Of a stretch of 64,000 bases of DNA, positions 18,412 through 23,036 are shown one piece after another. Numbering within the stretch: the stretch's first letter is position 1; each line of letters starts with the position of its first letter. Below the pieces are notes generated by a model. The model was not told the origin of the DNA, made no database searches, and was given only the letters and a program-made list of their open reading frames with translations. A program made the translations under genes and the position numbers. This DNA is from a virus, in IMG/VR virus record IMGVR_UViG_3300045988_149268, positions 1-64,000 of that record. The stretch is one strand, 5' to 3'.

Positions 18412-18852
18412 ATGACTATTGAAATGCTACATGATGAAATGGTCGCTGCTTGGAAGCATGGTGACATGACAATTAAAAACGTGCTTTCTAATGCTATTGC
18501 GCAAATTAAGAAAGCTGCTATTGATGCTGGATGCCGTGATAATGTATCTGAAGATTTTGTAAACGCACAACTGCTTAAAATTAAGAAAAATATCCAAGAG
18601 CAAATTGATACTTGTCCAACTAATCGCACTGAACTACTTAGTAAGTATAATGAGGAAATGGACATTATTAATCATTATGCACCGCATGTAATTACTTCAG
18701 AATCAGAAATTAAAAAGGCTATTATGAAAATTTCTGGCACAGATAAGATTGCAAAAAACCAGCGTGGTGCAATTATGAAAGTAATTAAGGCAAGCGGCGC
18801 GCTTTATGACATGGCTATTGTCAATAAGGTCATTAGCACAATGATGGAGTGA
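18412..18852 (+). CDS. GatB/YqeY domain protein
   Basis: 146 aa; ...ELLSKYNEEMDIINHY...KAIMKISGTDKIAKNQRGAIMKVIKASGALYD pattern typical of YqeY/GatB C-terminal domain. Confidence 0.55.
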   Translation: MTIEMLHDEMVAAWKHGDMTIKNVLSNAIAQIKKAAIDAGCRDNVSEDFVNAQLLKIKKNIQEQIDTCPTNRTELLSKYNEEMDIINHYAPHVITSESEIKKAIMKISGTDKIAKNQRGAIMKVIKASGALYDMAIVNKVISTMME

Positions 18853-19275: not shown

Positions 19276-20022
19276 ATGAAGCACTATGTTGCTACTGATA
19301 TACATGGCAATCTTGCTATGTATACAAAAATGATGAGTTGGTTAAATAGCCAAGACGAAGAGTTTGTATTATATTGTTTAGGTGATGCAGCAGATCGCGG
19401 CAAAGATGGCTATAAGATTATGGAGCTTTTGTTAAATGATCCAAAAGTTATTTATCTTAAAGGTAATCATGAAGATTTATTCGTACGTGCTGCGTTTGAA
19501 TATGCCGATTTAGCAATGGAATTGGATTGCACAAAACGAGAGTTAATGAAACGATTTAACAGTGATTTGGCTTCGCTTACAGATTATGGCGTAGATATGC
19601 GATTGCATTATTGTAATGGCGGAAAATATACGCTTAAAGCATGGATTGACGCTGGATGTAAAATGGATATTATCTATAAATTAAAAAAACTGCCTCTAAA
19701 AACGTCTTTTGAAAATTTTGATATGTGCCACGCTGGATGTGAAATTTCTGACTGGAACAAAGACAATGAATCTGCGCTTCTTTGGGATAGAACACATTTT
19801 AAAATGCCTTGGAAAACAGATAGAGTTTTGATTCATGGACATACGCCGATAAATCATGTTCCTGTTGATTTTAAAGATTGGCATGTAAAGTCTTATTGTA
19901 ATGGGCAGAAATATGATCTCGATACTATATGTTGGCGCACAAATATCTTGACTATGCTTTGTCTTGAAACGCAAGAAATTATAACTCTTACTAAAGATGA
20001 TACTGTATCATTTGATTTTTAA
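19276..20022 (+). CDS. Lambda-PPase/ApaH-like calcineurin-type metallophosphoesterase (2 of 3)
   Basis: TDIHGN, GDAADRG, GNHE motifs; ATG 19276 after aggaggtgttgggt. Confidence 0.65.
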   Translation: MKHYVATDIHGNLAMYTKMMSWLNSQDEEFVLYCLGDAADRGKDGYKIMELLLNDPKVIYLKGNHEDLFVRAAFEYADLAMELDCTKRELMKRFNSDLASLTDYGVDMRLHYCNGGKYTLKAWIDAGCKMDIIYKLKKLPLKTSFENFDMCHAGCEISDWNKDNESALLWDRTHFKMPWKTDRVLIHGHTPINHVPVDFKDWHVKSYCNGQKYDLDTICWRTNILTMLCLETQEIITLTKDDTVSFDF

Positions 20023-20040
20023 TTAAATTTTTGATATAAT
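20012..20040 (+). promoter_or_regulatory. Sigma-A type promoter TTGATT-N17-TATAAT overlapping upstream stop codon
   Basis: Promoter-family member. Confidence 0.55.
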
Positions 20041-20064: not shown

Positions 20065-20361
20065 ATGATTTTTATGGGAAAGAATTGTCGAGATTTTGAA
20101 ACGCATGATTTTTATTGTATTAATTGCGGTAACAAGGGTATCCCGTTGACTCGTCAAGGCAATAAGAAAAAGGGCGAAGGGCATCGTAAAAATATGTATT
20201 GTTATCATTGTAAACATACAGTAAATCATGTGGAATGTCGTTCAATGGATGAAGTCAAACAATTTCAATTTCAATTTGCAAATGGAGATTTTAAAGAAGA
20301 AGCAGAACGAGAGTTGGCTTATGAAAAAGTCGCTCCTCGACTTTCTACCCTATTGAGATAA
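20065..20361 (+). CDS. Zinc-ribbon protein
   Basis: CINCGN...CYHCKH motifs. Confidence 0.5.
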   Translation: MIFMGKNCRDFETHDFYCINCGNKGIPLTRQGNKKKGEGHRKNMYCYHCKHTVNHVECRSMDEVKQFQFQFANGDFKEEAERELAYEKVAPRLSTLLR

Positions 20362-20371
20362 GGAGTTAAAA

Positions 20372-20857
20372 ATGTCTTCTCATCTTTATGTTATGGTTGG
20401 CGCGCCTGGTAGTGGCAAAAGCACTTGGATTCGTAAGAATATGGGTATCTTATTCAAGGAATCTATGTGCGTTTATGTTAGCCGTGATGCCATTCGTTAT
20501 GGTATGCTTAATGATTCTGATGAATATTTTTCTCATGAAAAGGAAGTTTTTAATGAGATGATTTATCAGATTGTTGATGGGCTTAAAAAGGGATTTAATG
20601 TATTCGCCGATGCTTCTCATTTGAATCACGCGTCTCGCGCCAAGCTCATTAATGCGATTAATCGGCATTATATTGATTATGACGTGCGTTTCGTATTTTT
20701 TGATACTTGTTTAGCAACTTGCATTAAGCGTAATGCTCAGCGAACTGGGCGCGCACTTGTCCCTGAGTCAGTAGTTGGTCAGATGTTTGGTAATATGACA
20801 GTTCCAACCGTAGGTGAATTTCCAAATTGTGTTGGAGTTTGGATGGTGAGAGAATGA
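20372..20857 (+). CDS. pnk: Polynucleotide 5-prime-kinase, T4 Pnk kinase-domain-like (no HAD phosphatase domain)
   Basis: GAPGSGKSTWIRKN, SRDAIRYGM, ADASHLNHASR, RNAQRTGRALVPESVVGQMF all parallel T4 Pnk kinase motifs (recalled from memory, not searched). Confidence 0.6.
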   Translation: MSSHLYVMVGAPGSGKSTWIRKNMGILFKESMCVYVSRDAIRYGMLNDSDEYFSHEKEVFNEMIYQIVDGLKKGFNVFADASHLNHASRAKLINAINRHYIDYDVRFVFFDTCLATCIKRNAQRTGRALVPESVVGQMFGNMTVPTVGEFPNCVGVWMVRE

Positions 20858-21423
20858 TTTATTTTTCTTCAGATTATCATTTTAATCATGATAGAGAGTT
20901 TATTTATCAAGCGCGTGGTTTCCCGAATGTTGAAGAAATGAATGAAGCGATTATCCAGAGACATAATGAAATTGTGAAGCCAGAAGATATTATTTATGTG
21001 CTTGGTGATTTGTGTCTTGGTGGTGGTTCTGAGGAAGCACTTCAAAAAAATAAAGAACTAATTGAACGATTAAATGGCACTCTTTATATCATCCGTGGTA
21101 ATCATGATAGTGATAATAGATGTAAAATGTATCGCTCTTGTAAAAATGTTAAACGAGTTACTGCGGCGATGTATTTAAATTATAACGGTTATCATTTTTA
21201 TCTTAGCCATTACCCTACACTAACTGGTAATCTGGAAAAAGAATCTTTAAAGCAGTGCACGATTAACCTTTATGGGCATACGCATCAAGAAAAAAATTTT
21301 TACCGAGATATACCTTTTATGTATCATGTTGGTGTTGATTCCCACGATTGTTATCCCGTCTCTGTTGATGCTGCTATTGCTGAAATGAAAGCAAAAGTGC
21401 AAGAATGTTTAAACGAACTTTGA
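20854..21423 (+). CDS. Calcineurin-like metallophosphoesterase (3 of 3), overlapping/operonic with Pnk-like kinase; candidate 2-prime,3-prime-phosphate healing enzyme
   Basis: SDYHFNH, GDL, GNHD, GHTH motifs; start ATG 20854 after ggtgagaga. Confidence 0.6.
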   Translation: MIYFSSDYHFNHDREFIYQARGFPNVEEMNEAIIQRHNEIVKPEDIIYVLGDLCLGGGSEEALQKNKELIERLNGTLYIIRGNHDSDNRCKMYRSCKNVKRVTAAMYLNYNGYHFYLSHYPTLTGNLEKESLKQCTINLYGHTHQEKNFYRDIPFMYHVGVDSHDCYPVSVDAAIAEMKAKVQECLNEL

Positions 21424-21446: not shown

Positions 21447-22901
21447 ATGACGTATATTATGATTGGTATTATTGTGCTCGCTGTTATTGCTGTTGCTACC
21501 CTTGCCAGTATGAGCTATGTTAAGGCTCCGCCGGATCAGGCGTTTCTAATTTCTGGTCCACGCAAGGATATGAAGATTATCTCTGGTCGAGCAGGTTTTA
21601 GAGTGCCATTTGTTGATCGACTTGATAAGTTGTATCTTGGCATTATTGGCGTAGATGTAAAGACCAAGAACTCTGTCCCAACTGCCGAATATATTAATGT
21701 ATATGTTGATGCAAACGTGAATGTTTGCGTTGGGAAGTCTAATACACTTATGGCGCTTGCGGCGAAGAATTTTCTTAATCAAAAGCCAGATGCCATTTCT
21801 CGTAAAGCACAGGAAGTCCTTGAGGGCAATATGCGTGAAATTGTTGGTCAGATGAAGTTGACTGATATGGTAACTGACCGCAAGGCTTTTGCAGAAAAGG
21901 TTATGGAAAATGCCGCGCCTGATATGGAAAAGCTGGGTCTTGAAATTATTTCTTTCAATATTCAGAATTTTAGTGATGAAAATAATGTCATTAATGATCT
22001 GGGTATTGATAATGTTGAGCAAATTAAGAAGAACGCAGCAATTGCTAAGTCTGATGCAGAACGTGATGTCGCTATTCAGAAGGCAGAAAACAAGAGAAAG
22101 GCTAATGAAGCTCAGGTTGAAGCTGCTACTCAGATCGCGCAACAAAATACCGCTCTTGACATTAAAACCGCAGAATTGAAGGCATCGAGTGAAGTTAAGC
22201 GTGCTGCTGCAGATATGTCGTATGATATTCATAAGGCAGATCAGCAAAAGGAACTTGATGTTGCTCGCACCAATGCGCAGATTGCTCAGGCAGAGCGTCA
22301 GGTTGAATTGAAGAATCAGGAAATTGCGCTGAAGGAAAAGGAGCTTGATGCTCTTGTGCGCAAGCAGGCTGACGCAGATTTGTATGCGGCGCAACAGAAG
22401 GCTCAGGCTGATTTGGTGCGTCGTCAGAAGGAGGCCGAAGCTAAGGCTTATGAGGAAATTCAGCGAGCTAAGGCCGCGAAGGAATCTATGGAACTTGAGG
22501 CTGAAGCTCGTAAGATTGTCGCGGAAGCTGATTTGATTACTGCGCAGAAGGCTGCGGAAGGTATTCGTGCTAAGGCGGAAGCTGAAGCAGAAGGAATTCG
22601 TCAGAAGGGCCTCGCCGAAGCTGAAGGTATTGATAAGAAGGCAGAAGCGCAGAAGAAAATGGGCGAAGCATCTGTTTTGGAAATGTATTTCGCTGCGATG
22701 CCGCAGATTGCACAGGCTGTTGCCGCACCTCTTGCTAATGTTGATTCTATTACCATGTATGGTGATGGTAATCAGGCAAAGATGGTGCAGGATATTACGA
22801 CTACGATTAATCAGATTATGAAGGGCGTTAATGACGCTACTGGTGTTGATTTGAATAGCGTTCTTGCTGGTTATATCGGTGGAAGAATGGCTGAAAAGTA
22901 A
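21447..22901 (+). CDS. Flotillin-like SPFH/band-7 domain protein (FloT/YuaG-like); GC-richer
   Basis: N-terminal TM, SPFH core, long Ala/Glu/Lys/Gln-rich coiled-coil (flotillin repeats), C-terminal region. Confidence 0.65.
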   Translation: MTYIMIGIIVLAVIAVATLASMSYVKAPPDQAFLISGPRKDMKIISGRAGFRVPFVDRLDKLYLGIIGVDVKTKNSVPTAEYINVYVDANVNVCVGKSNTLMALAAKNFLNQKPDAISRKAQEVLEGNMREIVGQMKLTDMVTDRKAFAEKVMENAAPDMEKLGLEIISFNIQNFSDENNVINDLGIDNVEQIKKNAAIAKSDAERDVAIQKAENKRKANEAQVEAATQIAQQNTALDIKTAELKASSEVKRAAADMSYDIHKADQQKELDVARTNAQIAQAERQVELKNQEIALKEKELDALVRKQADADLYAAQQKAQADLVRRQKEAEAKAYEEIQRAKAAKESMELEAEARKIVAEADLITAQKAAEGIRAKAEAEAEGIRQKGLAEAEGIDKKAEAQKKMGEASVLEMYFAAMPQIAQAVAAPLANVDSITMYGDGNQAKMVQDITTTINQIMKGVNDATGVDLNSVLAGYIGGRMAEK

Positions 22902-23007: not shown

Positions 23008-23036
23008 TTGACTTTCCAAAAATTTTATGATATTAT
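23008..23036 (+). promoter_or_regulatory. Sigma-A type promoter TTGACT-N17-TATTAT
   Basis: Promoter-family member. Confidence 0.55.

Follow-up and report, generated by a model that had tools for sequence, protein, structure and literature searches.

The 64,000-nucleotide stretch of viral DNA analyzed here (positions 1 to 64,000 of IMG/VR record IMGVR_UViG_3300045988_149268; hereafter, the window) encodes a small P-loop protein that resembles the kinase half of T4 polynucleotide kinase (Pnk), followed at once by a gene for a metallophosphoesterase (MPE). Does this pair constitute an end-healing enzyme divided between two genes and, if so, what kind of phosphoesterase has been recruited? Healing of broken RNA ends by a 5' kinase and a 2',3' phosphoesterase, followed by ligation, allows phages to evade the anticodon nucleases and other ribotoxins of their hosts, and T4 Pnkp acts in this way with RNA ligase against tRNA restriction. 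To our knowledge, the phosphoesterases characterized together with a Pnk kinase so far number three: the HAD type, the lambda-type MPE and the HD domain.

The kinase gene begins with an ATG closely preceded by AAGGAG, and its product carries the motifs GAPGSGKSTW, SRDAIR, DASHLNHASR and RNAQRTGRALVPESVVGQM. Over the 148 residues that could be aligned, it is 26% identical to T4 Pnk (the reference used is identical to the PDB 1ltq sequence), with K16/S17, D39/R42, D80 and R120/R124 matched to T4 K15/S16, D35/R38, D85 and R122/R126, respectively; these catalytic positions are invariant or nearly so across 16 homologues. The motif-by-motif parallel with T4 Pnk proposed in a preliminary description of this DNA is therefore borne out, as is its view that the protein ends before the T4 phosphatase: the alignment stops at T4 residue 143 of 301, and the HAD phosphatase is absent because the kinase protein ends at the domain boundary. 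A search of the window with the C-terminal half of Karimac Pnk, which does detect HAD fusions in loci L063/L064 and L083-L086, gave no match to a HAD phosphatase.

Profile comparisons place the protein in the same family (E-values in parentheses). It scored against AAA_33 (2.7e-19) and KTI12 (4.6e-6) in Pfam and against phrog_505, "polynucleotide kinase" (8.5e-22), in PHROG, whereas TIGR04075 (bacter_Pnkp) was matched in its kinase region only, at 41.7 bits (cut-off 750). The best PDB match of the kinase family profile was the Clostridium thermocellum Pnkp kinase (4jst, 3.3e-19), followed by PSTK (4e-15), Pnkp1 (9e-15), T4 Pnk (9e-14) and mammalian PNKP (5e-9). Full-length matches were solely to polynucleotide/tRNA kinases (1e-13 to 1e-19), so that the protein groups with 5'-OH kinases of this type and not with small-molecule kinases, gluconate kinase being reached at only 2e-3 and through the P-loop region. 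Together, the comparisons confirm the 161-residue protein as a predicted Pnk-clade 5'-OH polynucleotide kinase in which all residues essential in T4 Pnk are kept.

Table 1. Features of the window discussed in the text.
Feature	Position	Strand	Details
DUF2828/DUF7788 TROVE/vWA-like "RNA-binding protein"	10844-12340	+	DUF7788 1.1e-35, DUF2828 6.6e-30, phrog_850 2e-128
RlaP-family Pol-beta nucleotidyltransferase	12428-13198	+	PF10127 1.1e-5 (25.7 bits, cut-off 23), phrog_388 2.4e-17
MPE1, third metallophosphoesterase	13183-13896	+	237 aa; Metallophos 6.4e-12, phrog_1649 7.4e-23
ATP-dependent RNA ligase, DRB0094/Naegleria (Rnl5-like) type	14781-16094	+	437 aa; N-terminal OB domain; phrog_968 1.4e-68
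MPE2, lambda-phosphatase/ApaH/Pnkp-phosphatase-like metallophosphoesterase	19276-20022	+	248 aa; opens conserved block
Promoter-like site TTGATT-17-TATAAT with TG	20012-20040	+	Consensus scan only; 5' of zinc-ribbon gene
Zinc-ribbon protein, possible RNA-binding accessory subunit	20065-20361	+	About 95-98 aa; phrog_1257 1.5e-11
Stand-alone Pnk-clade 5'-OH polynucleotide kinase (predicted)	20372-20857	+	161 aa; phosphatase domain absent
MPE3, aq_1665-like binuclear metallophosphoesterase	20854-21423	+	189 aa; coupled to kinase via ATGA overlap
Flotillin-like SPFH/Band_7 protein	21447-22901	+	484 aa; Band_7 2e-18, Flot 6.6e-9

The start codon of the adjoining phosphoesterase, MPE3, shares the tetranucleotide ATGA with the TGA of the kinase gene, giving the 4-nt overlap noted previously, and GGTGA lies just 5' of it; the overlap and the Shine-Dalgarno sequences of the two genes indicate that they are likely to be co-translated. 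A longer MPE3 reading frame starting from TTG at 20827 gained no support from homologue alignments. As expected from the preliminary description, the DYH (D7-H9), GD (G51-D52), GNHD (G82-N83-H84-D85) and GHTH (G141-H142 and H144) motifs are present, together with H119, and all six metal- and phosphate-binding motifs are intact and invariant across the MPE3 family. MPE3 scored against Metallophos_2 in Pfam (8.2e-10, 39.3 bits, cut-off 27) and phrog_547 in PHROG (6.2e-42), and it fits the aq_1665/phrog_547 type: a single domain of ~190 residues with an N-terminal SDxHFxH. Its best match by both sequence and fold is aq_1665 of Aquifex aeolicus (PDB 1xm7), a structural-genomics protein to which it is only about 20-25% identical.

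MPE3 had been expected to share the phosphatase chemistry of bacterial Pnkp, and this holds to the extent that an analogous MPE accompanies the kinase; the two are not orthologous, since MPE3 belongs to the aq_1665/Metallophos_2 clade. It carries GDLCLGG in place of the lambda-phosphatase-type GDxxDRG, its profile matched aq_1665 and GpdQ and neither 4j6o nor 1g5b, and comparison with the C. thermocellum Pnkp phosphatase (4j6o) gave no match by sequence or by Foldseek. A homologue of the lambda phosphatase NinI, the other identity considered for this gene, is likewise not what was found. The phrog_547/aq_1665-like family is very large, comprising about 17,000 representatives of clusters at a threshold of E ≤ 1e-3, and we know of no member of the clade with an established function.

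Conservation of the gene pair was examined in 43 related IMG/VR loci, retrieved with an alignment-based scan (the kinase used as a single-protein query gave no matches), in which the kinases are 33-45% identical. MPE3 lies within ~1 kb downstream of the kinase in 42 of these 43 loci, many of which share ancestry and are hence not independent observations, and in 36 of the 42 linked loci the genes overlap or are separated by no more than 110 bp. The same kinase-then-MPE3 order is kept in metagenome contigs, and one locus (L012) retains the pair even though its members are separated by an inserted gene for a GIY-YIG homing endonuclease. More distant loci show independent arrangements of the pair: the order is reversed, with MPE3 5' of the kinase and overlapping it, in L061 and L078, it is kinase-MPE3 in L073, and in L090 the pair forms the end of a four-gene operon, MPE-Rnl-kinase-MPE3. 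An MPE gene also lies 5' of a kinase-Rnl1 fusion in L066, L069 and L070. The pairing of kinase and MPE3 is not due to chance.

Natural fusions provide a further link. Single-chain kinase-MPE3 proteins were found as five cluster representatives of 341-348 residues that are <50% identical to each other, and the kinase and MPE3 have been fused in at least two lineages, with verification at the DNA level in one case. One gene call for MPE3 (L006) proved to be a stop-codon read-through artefact; the same explanation was rejected for fusion P0308, found on 114-kb phage contigs, because it occupies an uninterrupted table-11 ORF (L120:10001-11044), and for fusion cluster P0344, which has 101 members from many assemblies, nearly all of 341 residues among the members listed. 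The fusions were confirmed in Logan and ENA assemblies only; in IMG/VR, searches with the fused proteins as queries returned no fusions and every relative was split.

Sampled from the MPE side, a kinase neighbor was present in 11 of 80 MPE3-family loci, so the partnership is true of a subclade of phrog_547 and not of the family as a whole; phage K, for example, has a family member with no kinase beside it. In cultured bacteria (Butyrivibrio and C. beijerinckii), the neighbors of family members were uninformative (another MPE, an AbiE toxin-antitoxin pair and ankyrin proteins). The pair itself is common in 100-180-kb phages from human and animal gut metagenomes.

Gene structure, family membership, catalytic residues, coupled and conserved adjacency, and natural fusions were each observed directly, and the kinase and MPE3 probably each supply one half of an enzyme that heals nucleic-acid ends and serves RNA repair. 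As the kinase lacks a phosphatase half, is coupled to MPE3 and is fused to it elsewhere, the pair most likely readies broken RNA ends for ligation. The kinase would transfer a phosphate from NTP to a 5'-OH polynucleotide end, presumably RNA rather than DNA, using its P-loop, Asp39 as the general base and Arg42, Arg120 and Arg124, and the two-metal center of MPE3, perhaps in complex with the kinase, would strip a 2',3'-cyclic or 3'-phosphate from the opposite broken end. The healed 5'-PO4 and 3'-OH ends could then be sealed by the Rnl5-type ligase, the presumed sealing enzyme, after RlaP had refilled whatever nucleotides the 3' end had lost. The system would likely serve to undo host ribonuclease attack on tRNA or rRNA during infection. 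We infer all of the enzyme activities in the region, as well as the tRNA substrate, from the genes present; for MPE3, it is only linkage to and fusion with a Pnk kinase that suggest an RNA 2',3'-cyclic phosphodiesterase/3'-phosphatase. In bacterial Pnkp, the kinase is joined to an MPE 2',3'-phosphatase (PMC3675462), the lambda phosphatase also acts as a 2',3'-cyclic phosphodiesterase (PMC2190708), and calcineurin-like and HD phosphatases have been put forward for the RNA repair systems of some jumbo phages (PMC7824862).

The reaction attributed to MPE3 could differ from that proposed. After aq_1665, its structural neighbors are LpxH, MJ0936, YfcE, Mre11/SbcD and PolD DP1, all diesterases or nucleases and not RNA 3'-phosphatases, and fold searches did not discriminate between phosphatase and diesterase/nuclease chemistry, using a structure model that is poor at residues 122-151, where the GHTH motif lies. 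MPE3 might thus be a nuclease or end-trimming phosphodiesterase that excises the damaged 3'-terminal nucleotide together with its cyclic phosphate, or processes 3' ends as Mre11 or PdeM do, after which RlaP would refill the end, the kinase phosphorylate the 5' end and the ligase seal, so that the outcome is still RNA repair. We consider this unlikely: the resemblance to nucleases is one of general fold, the capping and nuclease-specific domains of Mre11/SbcD are lacking, and MPEs of similar size (MJ0936 and YfcE) are generic phosphodiesterases.

Whether the ends are those of RNA or DNA is addressed by the surrounding genes, which, as judged from their predicted products, form an RNA-repair island that includes a TROVE/vWA-like protein, RlaP, an Rnl5-type ligase, three MPEs, a zinc-ribbon protein and a flotillin. 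The Pol-beta nucleotidyltransferase and the RNA ligase listed in the preliminary description are both real, the former being of the RlaP type, a family linked to 3'-end nucleotide restoration whose biochemistry has been published (PMC12776372), and the latter scoring against PHA02142 OB (2.6e-7), RNA_ligase (7.5e-5), TIGR02306 RNA_lig_DRB0094 (1.3e-15) and NgrRnl 5cot (0.013). In many loci, the DUF2828/DUF7788 gene recurs close to either the kinase or RlaP. When the 10.8-23 kb region of the window was compared by megablast with 50,697 phage records, no match was returned, hence there is no annotated close relative among them, and literature full text yielded nothing useful on DUF2828 with RNA ligase, or on flotillin/SPFH with RNA ligase in phages.

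The pair could instead heal DNA ends (5'-OH and 3'-PO4) in phage replication, recombination, repair or recycling of host DNA. Both in the window and in its relatives, genes for gyrase and DNA ligase follow shortly after the block; the fused gene of L120 has gyrB/gyrA and the gene for an NAD-dependent DNA ligase as neighbors, and its 10-kb flanks contain no RNA ligase; and both T4 Pnkp and the Runella HD-Pnk act on DNA as well as RNA (PMC6097658). However, an RNA ligase, RlaP and/or TROVE/vWA-like gene is found within a few kb in most loci, the kinase is joined to RNA ligases in the L090 operon and the kinase-Rnl1 fusions, and its closest solved relatives (CthPnkp, PSTK and Pnkp1) act on RNA. 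A role confined to DNA ends therefore appears distinctly unlikely.

A second candidate for the phosphoesterase partner is MPE2, located two genes upstream within the same conserved block. MPE2 matched phrog_246 (2.4e-29) and carries GDxxDRG and GNHE, and its family profile found the bacteriophage lambda Ser/Thr phosphatase NinI as its closest solved relative (1g5b, 1.6e-22), followed by ApaH (1.7e-7) and the CthPnkp phosphatase (4j6o, 1.8e-6), making it the sole MPE of the three to match both the lambda and Pnkp phosphatases. A further match was to the MPE part of phrog_8238, a kinase-MPE-ligase family. By these comparisons, the predicted lambda/Pnkp-like enzyme of the region is MPE2 and not the kinase-adjoining MPE3. 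MPE2 might then be the true 2',3'-phosphatase partner, with MPE3 merely co-expressed, for instance to hydrolyze host immune-signaling nucleotides or other phosphodiesters; the MPE3 family is widespread without any kinase, and there is a weak match to an "anti-phage phosphoesterase" model. Nevertheless, it is MPE3 that overlaps the kinase stop codon, stays beside the kinase in 42 of the 43 loci and forms a single chain with it in at least two lineages that are well documented, whereas MPE2, which precedes the zinc-ribbon and kinase genes in many loci, is in many others either missing or distant from the kinase; partnership with MPE2 is consequently very unlikely. The third enzyme, MPE1, overlaps the RlaP stop by 16 nt, an arrangement repeated in L004. 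MPE1 and MPE2 had been described as paralogs of MPE3; both genes are real, yet recent paralogy was rejected, as the three proteins share only short motif matches in pairwise BLASTP and belong to different clades and PHROG families (547, 246 and 1649).

Finally, despite the breadth of AAA_33, weak P-loop-only matches to gluconate and uridine kinases and a window rich in genes of nucleotide metabolism (e.g. SHMT and NrdD), it is extremely improbable that the P-loop protein is a small-molecule/nucleotide kinase and that the pair serves such metabolism, because its full-length profile matches are confined to polynucleotide/tRNA kinases and its acceptor-binding SRDxxR (T4 D35/R38) is invariant.

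The preferred reading, a split RNA end-healing enzyme, can be set against known systems. T4 Pnkp/PseT (1ltq) has a homologous, phage-encoded kinase module, but in T4 this is followed by a C-terminal DxDxT (HAD) phosphatase in place of a separate binuclear MPE gene, and the T4 ligase is Rnl1 whereas that of the window is Rnl5/DRB0094-like. Bacterial Pnkp (C. thermocellum, Pnkp-Hen1) follows the same logic of Pnk kinase, binuclear MPE and RNA ligase, but as one 870-residue kinase-MPE-ligase chain with a lambda-Pase-type phosphatase (GDxxDRG, GNHE) rather than one of the aq_1665 type; its partner, the Hen1 methyltransferase, did not appear among the genes of the window that were scanned. In the HD-Pnk of Runella slithyformis, the Pnk kinase likewise has a swapped 2',3'-phosphoesterase partner (PMC6097658), there a fused HD domain and here an MPE that is usually encoded separately; HD-kinase fusions also occur among relatives of the window kinase, a phage example being Campylobacter phage CPt10 gp054. 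Phage RNA-repair sets known from comparative genomics (Iyer et al. 2021, PMC7824862; RlaP, PMC12776372) share this toolkit, namely tRNAs, a TROVE-like protein, RlaP, a Pnk kinase and an ATP-dependent RNA ligase, and the accessible text of that work does not mention the aq_1665/phrog_547 clade, translational coupling, kinase-MPE fusions or the zinc-ribbon/flotillin block. Relative to the systems compared here, what is new within this known repair theme is a large human-gut phage with a T4-like kinase that has no phosphatase half and is coupled to a separate phosphoesterase.

If the pairing is functional, it would give a first function to part of the very large phrog_547/aq_1665-like family of phage "phosphoesterases" and extend the end-healing repertoire by a fourth module. 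Because the pair is common in gut phages, it is relevant to the ways in which abundant phages of the gut resist RNA-targeting immunity, and the small, separable kinase and MPE3 could serve as reagents in RNA-end chemistry.

The genes that flank the pair invite a broader, doubtful proposal, in which the kinase and its aq_1665-clade MPE would represent a fourth end-healing architecture within a multi-protein RNA-repair machine: the zinc-ribbon protein would recruit tRNA or rRNA, the flotillin would provide a scaffold, and the three MPEs would divide the labor between cyclic-phosphate opening, 2'/3'-monoester removal and 3'-end preparation for RlaP. The zinc-ribbon gene is directly 5' of the kinase, and often overlaps it, in most related loci, and the flotillin-like gene is directly 3' of MPE3 in the window and in >20 related loci. 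The zinc-ribbon protein has an invariant FYCINCG...HRKxMYCxxC, and residues 11-58 of its AF2 model weakly match a bacterial large-ribosomal-subunit chain of ~48-50 residues (Foldseek E 0.04, TM 0.75) that, judged by size, is probably the zinc-ribbon protein bL33. A promoter-like site 5' of the zinc-ribbon gene could possibly, on the weak indication of its hexamers, start a zinc-ribbon/kinase/MPE3/flotillin transcription unit; two further occurrences of the same hexamer pair are at 12373 and 18355, and downstream no other promoter-like site comes before the one at 23008.

The kinase gene begins with an ATG preceded by AAGGAG, and its TGA overlaps the ATG of the adjoining metallophosphoesterase gene (MPE3) as ATGA, with GGTGA ahead of the second start; such a stop/start overlap is the classic layout for translational coupling. 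A TTG at 20827 was rejected as the MPE3 start, as homologue alignments begin at the ATG of the overlap. The two genes belong to the part of a large phage genome that serves replication and nucleotide metabolism (DnaB, primase, RecJ, Dda, DNA polymerase, NrdD, gyrase, DNA ligase and two tRNAs), on a ~166-kb contig from a human gut metagenome; comparison with 50,697 deposited phage genomes yielded no close relative.

The kinase matched AAA_33 (2.7e-19) and KTI12 (4.6e-6) in Pfam and phrog_505, 'polynucleotide kinase' (8.5e-22), in PHROGs. Used as a single-sequence query, it retrieved as full-length solved relatives only L-seryl-tRNA(Sec) kinase, Capnocytophaga Pnkp1, the C. thermocellum Pnkp kinase domain and T4 Pnk. 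A family profile built from 16 members ranked the CthPnkp kinase first (3.3e-19), followed by PSTK (4e-15), Pnkp1 (9e-15), T4 Pnk (9e-14) and mammalian PNKP (5e-9), with gluconate kinase matching at 2e-3 through the P-loop only. Because the family groups with polynucleotide kinases and not with adenylate, shikimate or gluconate kinases, the kinase assignment stands. Direct alignment with T4 Pnk (the sequence of PDB 1ltq) gave 26% identity over 148 residues and placed K16/S17, D39/R42, D80 and R120/R124 opposite T4 K15/S16, D35/R38, D85 and R122/R126, positions that are invariant or nearly so across the family. The alignment stops at T4 residue 143, just ahead of the HAD domain, confirming the preliminary description of a kinase that matches the T4 catalytic residues and ends before the phosphatase. 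Similar stand-alone kinases of 150–181 residues are common on metagenomic contigs of 100–170 kb.

The overlapping gene does encode a metallophosphoesterase, as had been proposed (Metallophos_2, 8.2e-10; Metallophos, 1.3e-7; phrog_547, 6.2e-42), predicted from its motifs to be binuclear: D7xH9, G51-D52, G82-N83-H84-D85, H119, G141-H142 and H144 are all intact, and invariant among homologues. The overall quality of the AF2 model is good (pLDDT 78), with residues 122–151 poorly modelled. The phosphatase was originally likened to that of bacterial Pnkp; this does not hold for MPE3, which belongs to the aq_1665/phrog_547 clade, but it does for MPE2, the lambda-phosphatase-like protein upstream. MPE2 carries the PPP signatures GDxxDRG and GNHE, its family profile matched lambda phosphatase (1.6e-22), ApaH (1.7e-7) and the CthPnkp phosphatase domain (1.8e-6), and a further match is to the MPE portion of the 737-residue kinase-MPE-ligase family phrog_8238. 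Nor are the three metallophosphoesterases of the window paralogues, as first suggested: MPE1 belongs to the distinct family phrog_1649, and pairwise BLASTP among the three returned matches of motif length only, leaving three clades. In a 502-residue metagenomic protein (P0268), an N-terminal MPE of the MPE3 clade is fused to a TatD-family nuclease domain, another hint that this clade acts on nucleic-acid ends. One public MPE gene call (L006:6238-7014, 258 residues) reads through an in-frame stop, the table-11 ORF being 192 residues; either an alternative genetic code was applied in gene calling or the phage recodes the stop codon.

The linkage of the two genes was examined in 80 IMG/VR loci gathered with the kinase profile and annotated by HMMs from the window's proteins. 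The kinase was clearly of the same family (33–45% identity) in 43 loci, and in 42 of these a phrog_547-type MPE lies ≤1.05 kb downstream, bearing out the co-occurrence expected in related phages; in 36 the genes overlap or lie within 110 bp. A GIY-YIG homing endonuclease gene separates them in one locus (L012), and the wider gaps elsewhere are consistent with such small inserted genes. Metagenome contigs with kinases 43–62% identical show the same layout. As many of these phages share ancestry, 42 of 43 overstates the independence of the observations, but other arrangements, other phosphoesterase partners and gene fusions provide three lines independent of shared synteny. Among more distant loci, L061 and L078 have the MPE upstream of the kinase and overlapping it; L073 has the order kinase-MPE; L066, L069 and L070 each have an MPE ahead of a kinase-Rnl1 fusion; and L090 has a four-gene MPE-Rnl-kinase-MPE operon. 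The same kinase module is fused or adjacent to HAD (L063/L064, L083–L086, Streptomyces phage Karimac) or HD (Campylobacter phage CPt10, L059, L068, Bacillus phage C30-3) partners; as a rule, then, this kinase comes with a phosphoesterase.

When 1.84 billion representative proteins were searched exhaustively with the MPE3 profile, the top 150 matches included five fusions of 341–348 residues, mutually <50% identical, with the AAA_33 kinase N-terminal and an MPE3-clade MPE C-terminal. The fused genes are genuine: one cluster comprises 101 near-identical proteins drawn from many assemblies, another is found on 114-kb phage contigs, and the fused gene of locus L120 is an uninterrupted table-11 ORF that occupies the corresponding place in the genome, immediately ahead of the gyrase genes. 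Such natural fusions argue strongly that the kinase and the MPE work jointly.

Sampling that starts from the MPE gives a much weaker link: a kinase gene neighbours the MPE in only 11 of 80 loci drawn from genome and MAG contigs, and no Pnk lies near the MPE in Staphylococcus phage K and numerous other cultured phages. A neighbour-joining tree separates a large, mostly kinase-linked clade that includes MPE3 from a bacterial/prophage clade that is never kinase-linked and a small basal group with reversed gene order. The kinase partnership thus marks a subclade, not the entire phrog_547 family.

Features of the kinase-MPE3 block and the surrounding RNA-repair island
Feature	Position	Strand	Remarks
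DUF2828/DUF7788 TROVE/vWA-like protein	10844-12340		upstream in island
Terminator-like hairpin	12344-12374		
Promoter-like site	12373-12401		
RlaP nucleotidyltransferase	12428-13198		upstream in island
MPE1	13183-13896		phrog_1649
RNA ligase	14781-16094		DRB0094/Naegleria type, N-terminal OB domain
Terminator-like hairpin	17138-17163		
SHMT and YqeY/GatB-like genes	17180-18852		
Terminator-like hairpin	18334-18359		
Promoter-like site	18355-18383		
MPE2	19276-20022		lambda-phosphatase-like
Promoter-like site	20012-20040		extended -10; consensus scan
Zinc-ribbon protein	20065-20361		phrog_1257; ~95-98 aa; invariant FYCINCG...HRKxMYCxxC...NHxE
Kinase ORF	20372-20857	+	161 aa
MPE3 ORF	20854-21423	+	189 aa
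Flotillin-like SPFH/Band_7 protein	21447-22901		484 aa, 3' of MPE3
Gyrase B and A genes	23856 onward		

The conserved block runs MPE2, zinc-ribbon, kinase, MPE3, flotillin-like protein. In most related loci the zinc-ribbon gene immediately precedes the kinase gene, in many cases with an overlap, and in two loci that lack the kinase (L118, L145) it abuts the MPE. The AF2 model of its product (pLDDT 84) shows a weak match, over residues 11–58, to a ~48–50-residue chain of the bacterial large ribosomal subunit (Foldseek E 0.04, TM 0.75), which from its size is probably the zinc-ribbon protein bL33; the product may be an RNA-binding accessory subunit, although zinc-ribbon matches are generic. The flotillin-like gene follows the phosphoesterase in >20 related phage loci, often with a PIN-PhoH protein next; its product, a membrane-scaffold type inside an RNA-repair block, matched no PHROG family. 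In the consensus scan the next promoter-like site after that preceding the zinc-ribbon gene is at 23008, so the genes from zinc-ribbon to flotillin may form a single transcription unit. The three tabulated promoter-like sites, each ahead of a gene group, repeat TTGATT, a 17-nt spacer with TG, and TATAAT, and may represent a class of early or middle phage promoters; two terminator-like hairpins end at or inside the first two.

Further upstream, MPE1 overlaps the RlaP stop by 16 nt (4 nt for the same pair in L004), which suggests a second coupled module for 3'-end cleaning before nucleotide addition; RlaP enzymes extend damaged RNA 3' ends by one or two nucleotides (PMC12776372). Relatives carry extra Thg1, NAD-salvage and NADAR genes. 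On one 182-kb contig (L011, ENA ERZ27227505, 1-10000), genes for Thg1 (a 3'-5' tRNA repair polymerase), NAMPT, NAD synthase, NADAR and an isochorismatase-family protein lie immediately upstream of the kinase-MPE pair, linking genes of RNA repair with those of NAD salvage.

In the scheme we infer, including its substrates, the exact MPE3 reaction and complex formation, the kinase would restore the 5'-phosphate and co-translated MPE3, possibly with MPE2, would remove a cyclic or 3'-phosphate; RlaP would replace lost nucleotides, and the Rnl5-type ligase, which requires 3'-OH and 5'-PO4 ends, would seal the break. The structural neighbours of MPE3 are diesterases and nucleases, which makes it just as plausible that MPE3 acts as a cyclic phosphodiesterase or trims ends as that it acts as a monoesterase. 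DNA end healing is also a live alternative, because T4 Pnkp and HD-Pnk act on DNA too (PMC6097658) and gyrase and DNA ligase genes border the block. Overall, the end-healing interpretation is supported, with the MPE clade and the supposed paralogy corrected. The pair shares its functional theme with T4 Pnkp, bacterial Pnkp and HD-Pnk, but the kinase lacks the HAD domain of the T4-type family, and the absence of a single chain and a ligase domain, together with the wrong MPE3 clade, sets the pair apart from bacterial Pnkp. The general idea is not new; the aq_1665/phrog_547-clade partner, translational coupling, natural two-domain fusions and conserved zinc-ribbon and flotillin neighbours appear to be, as far as could be checked. 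The logic will not surprise a specialist, yet a very large orphan family of phage phosphoesterases thereby gains a first function that can be put to the test.

The SHMT (serine hydroxymethyltransferase) and YqeY/GatB-like genes that separate the RNA ligase from the kinase block look like an auxiliary metabolic gene insertion, as the same interval in L004 lacks both. Homing-endonuclease genes of the GIY-YIG and LAGLIDADG types interrupt gyrase B and A in several relatives (L004, L005, L010, L012).
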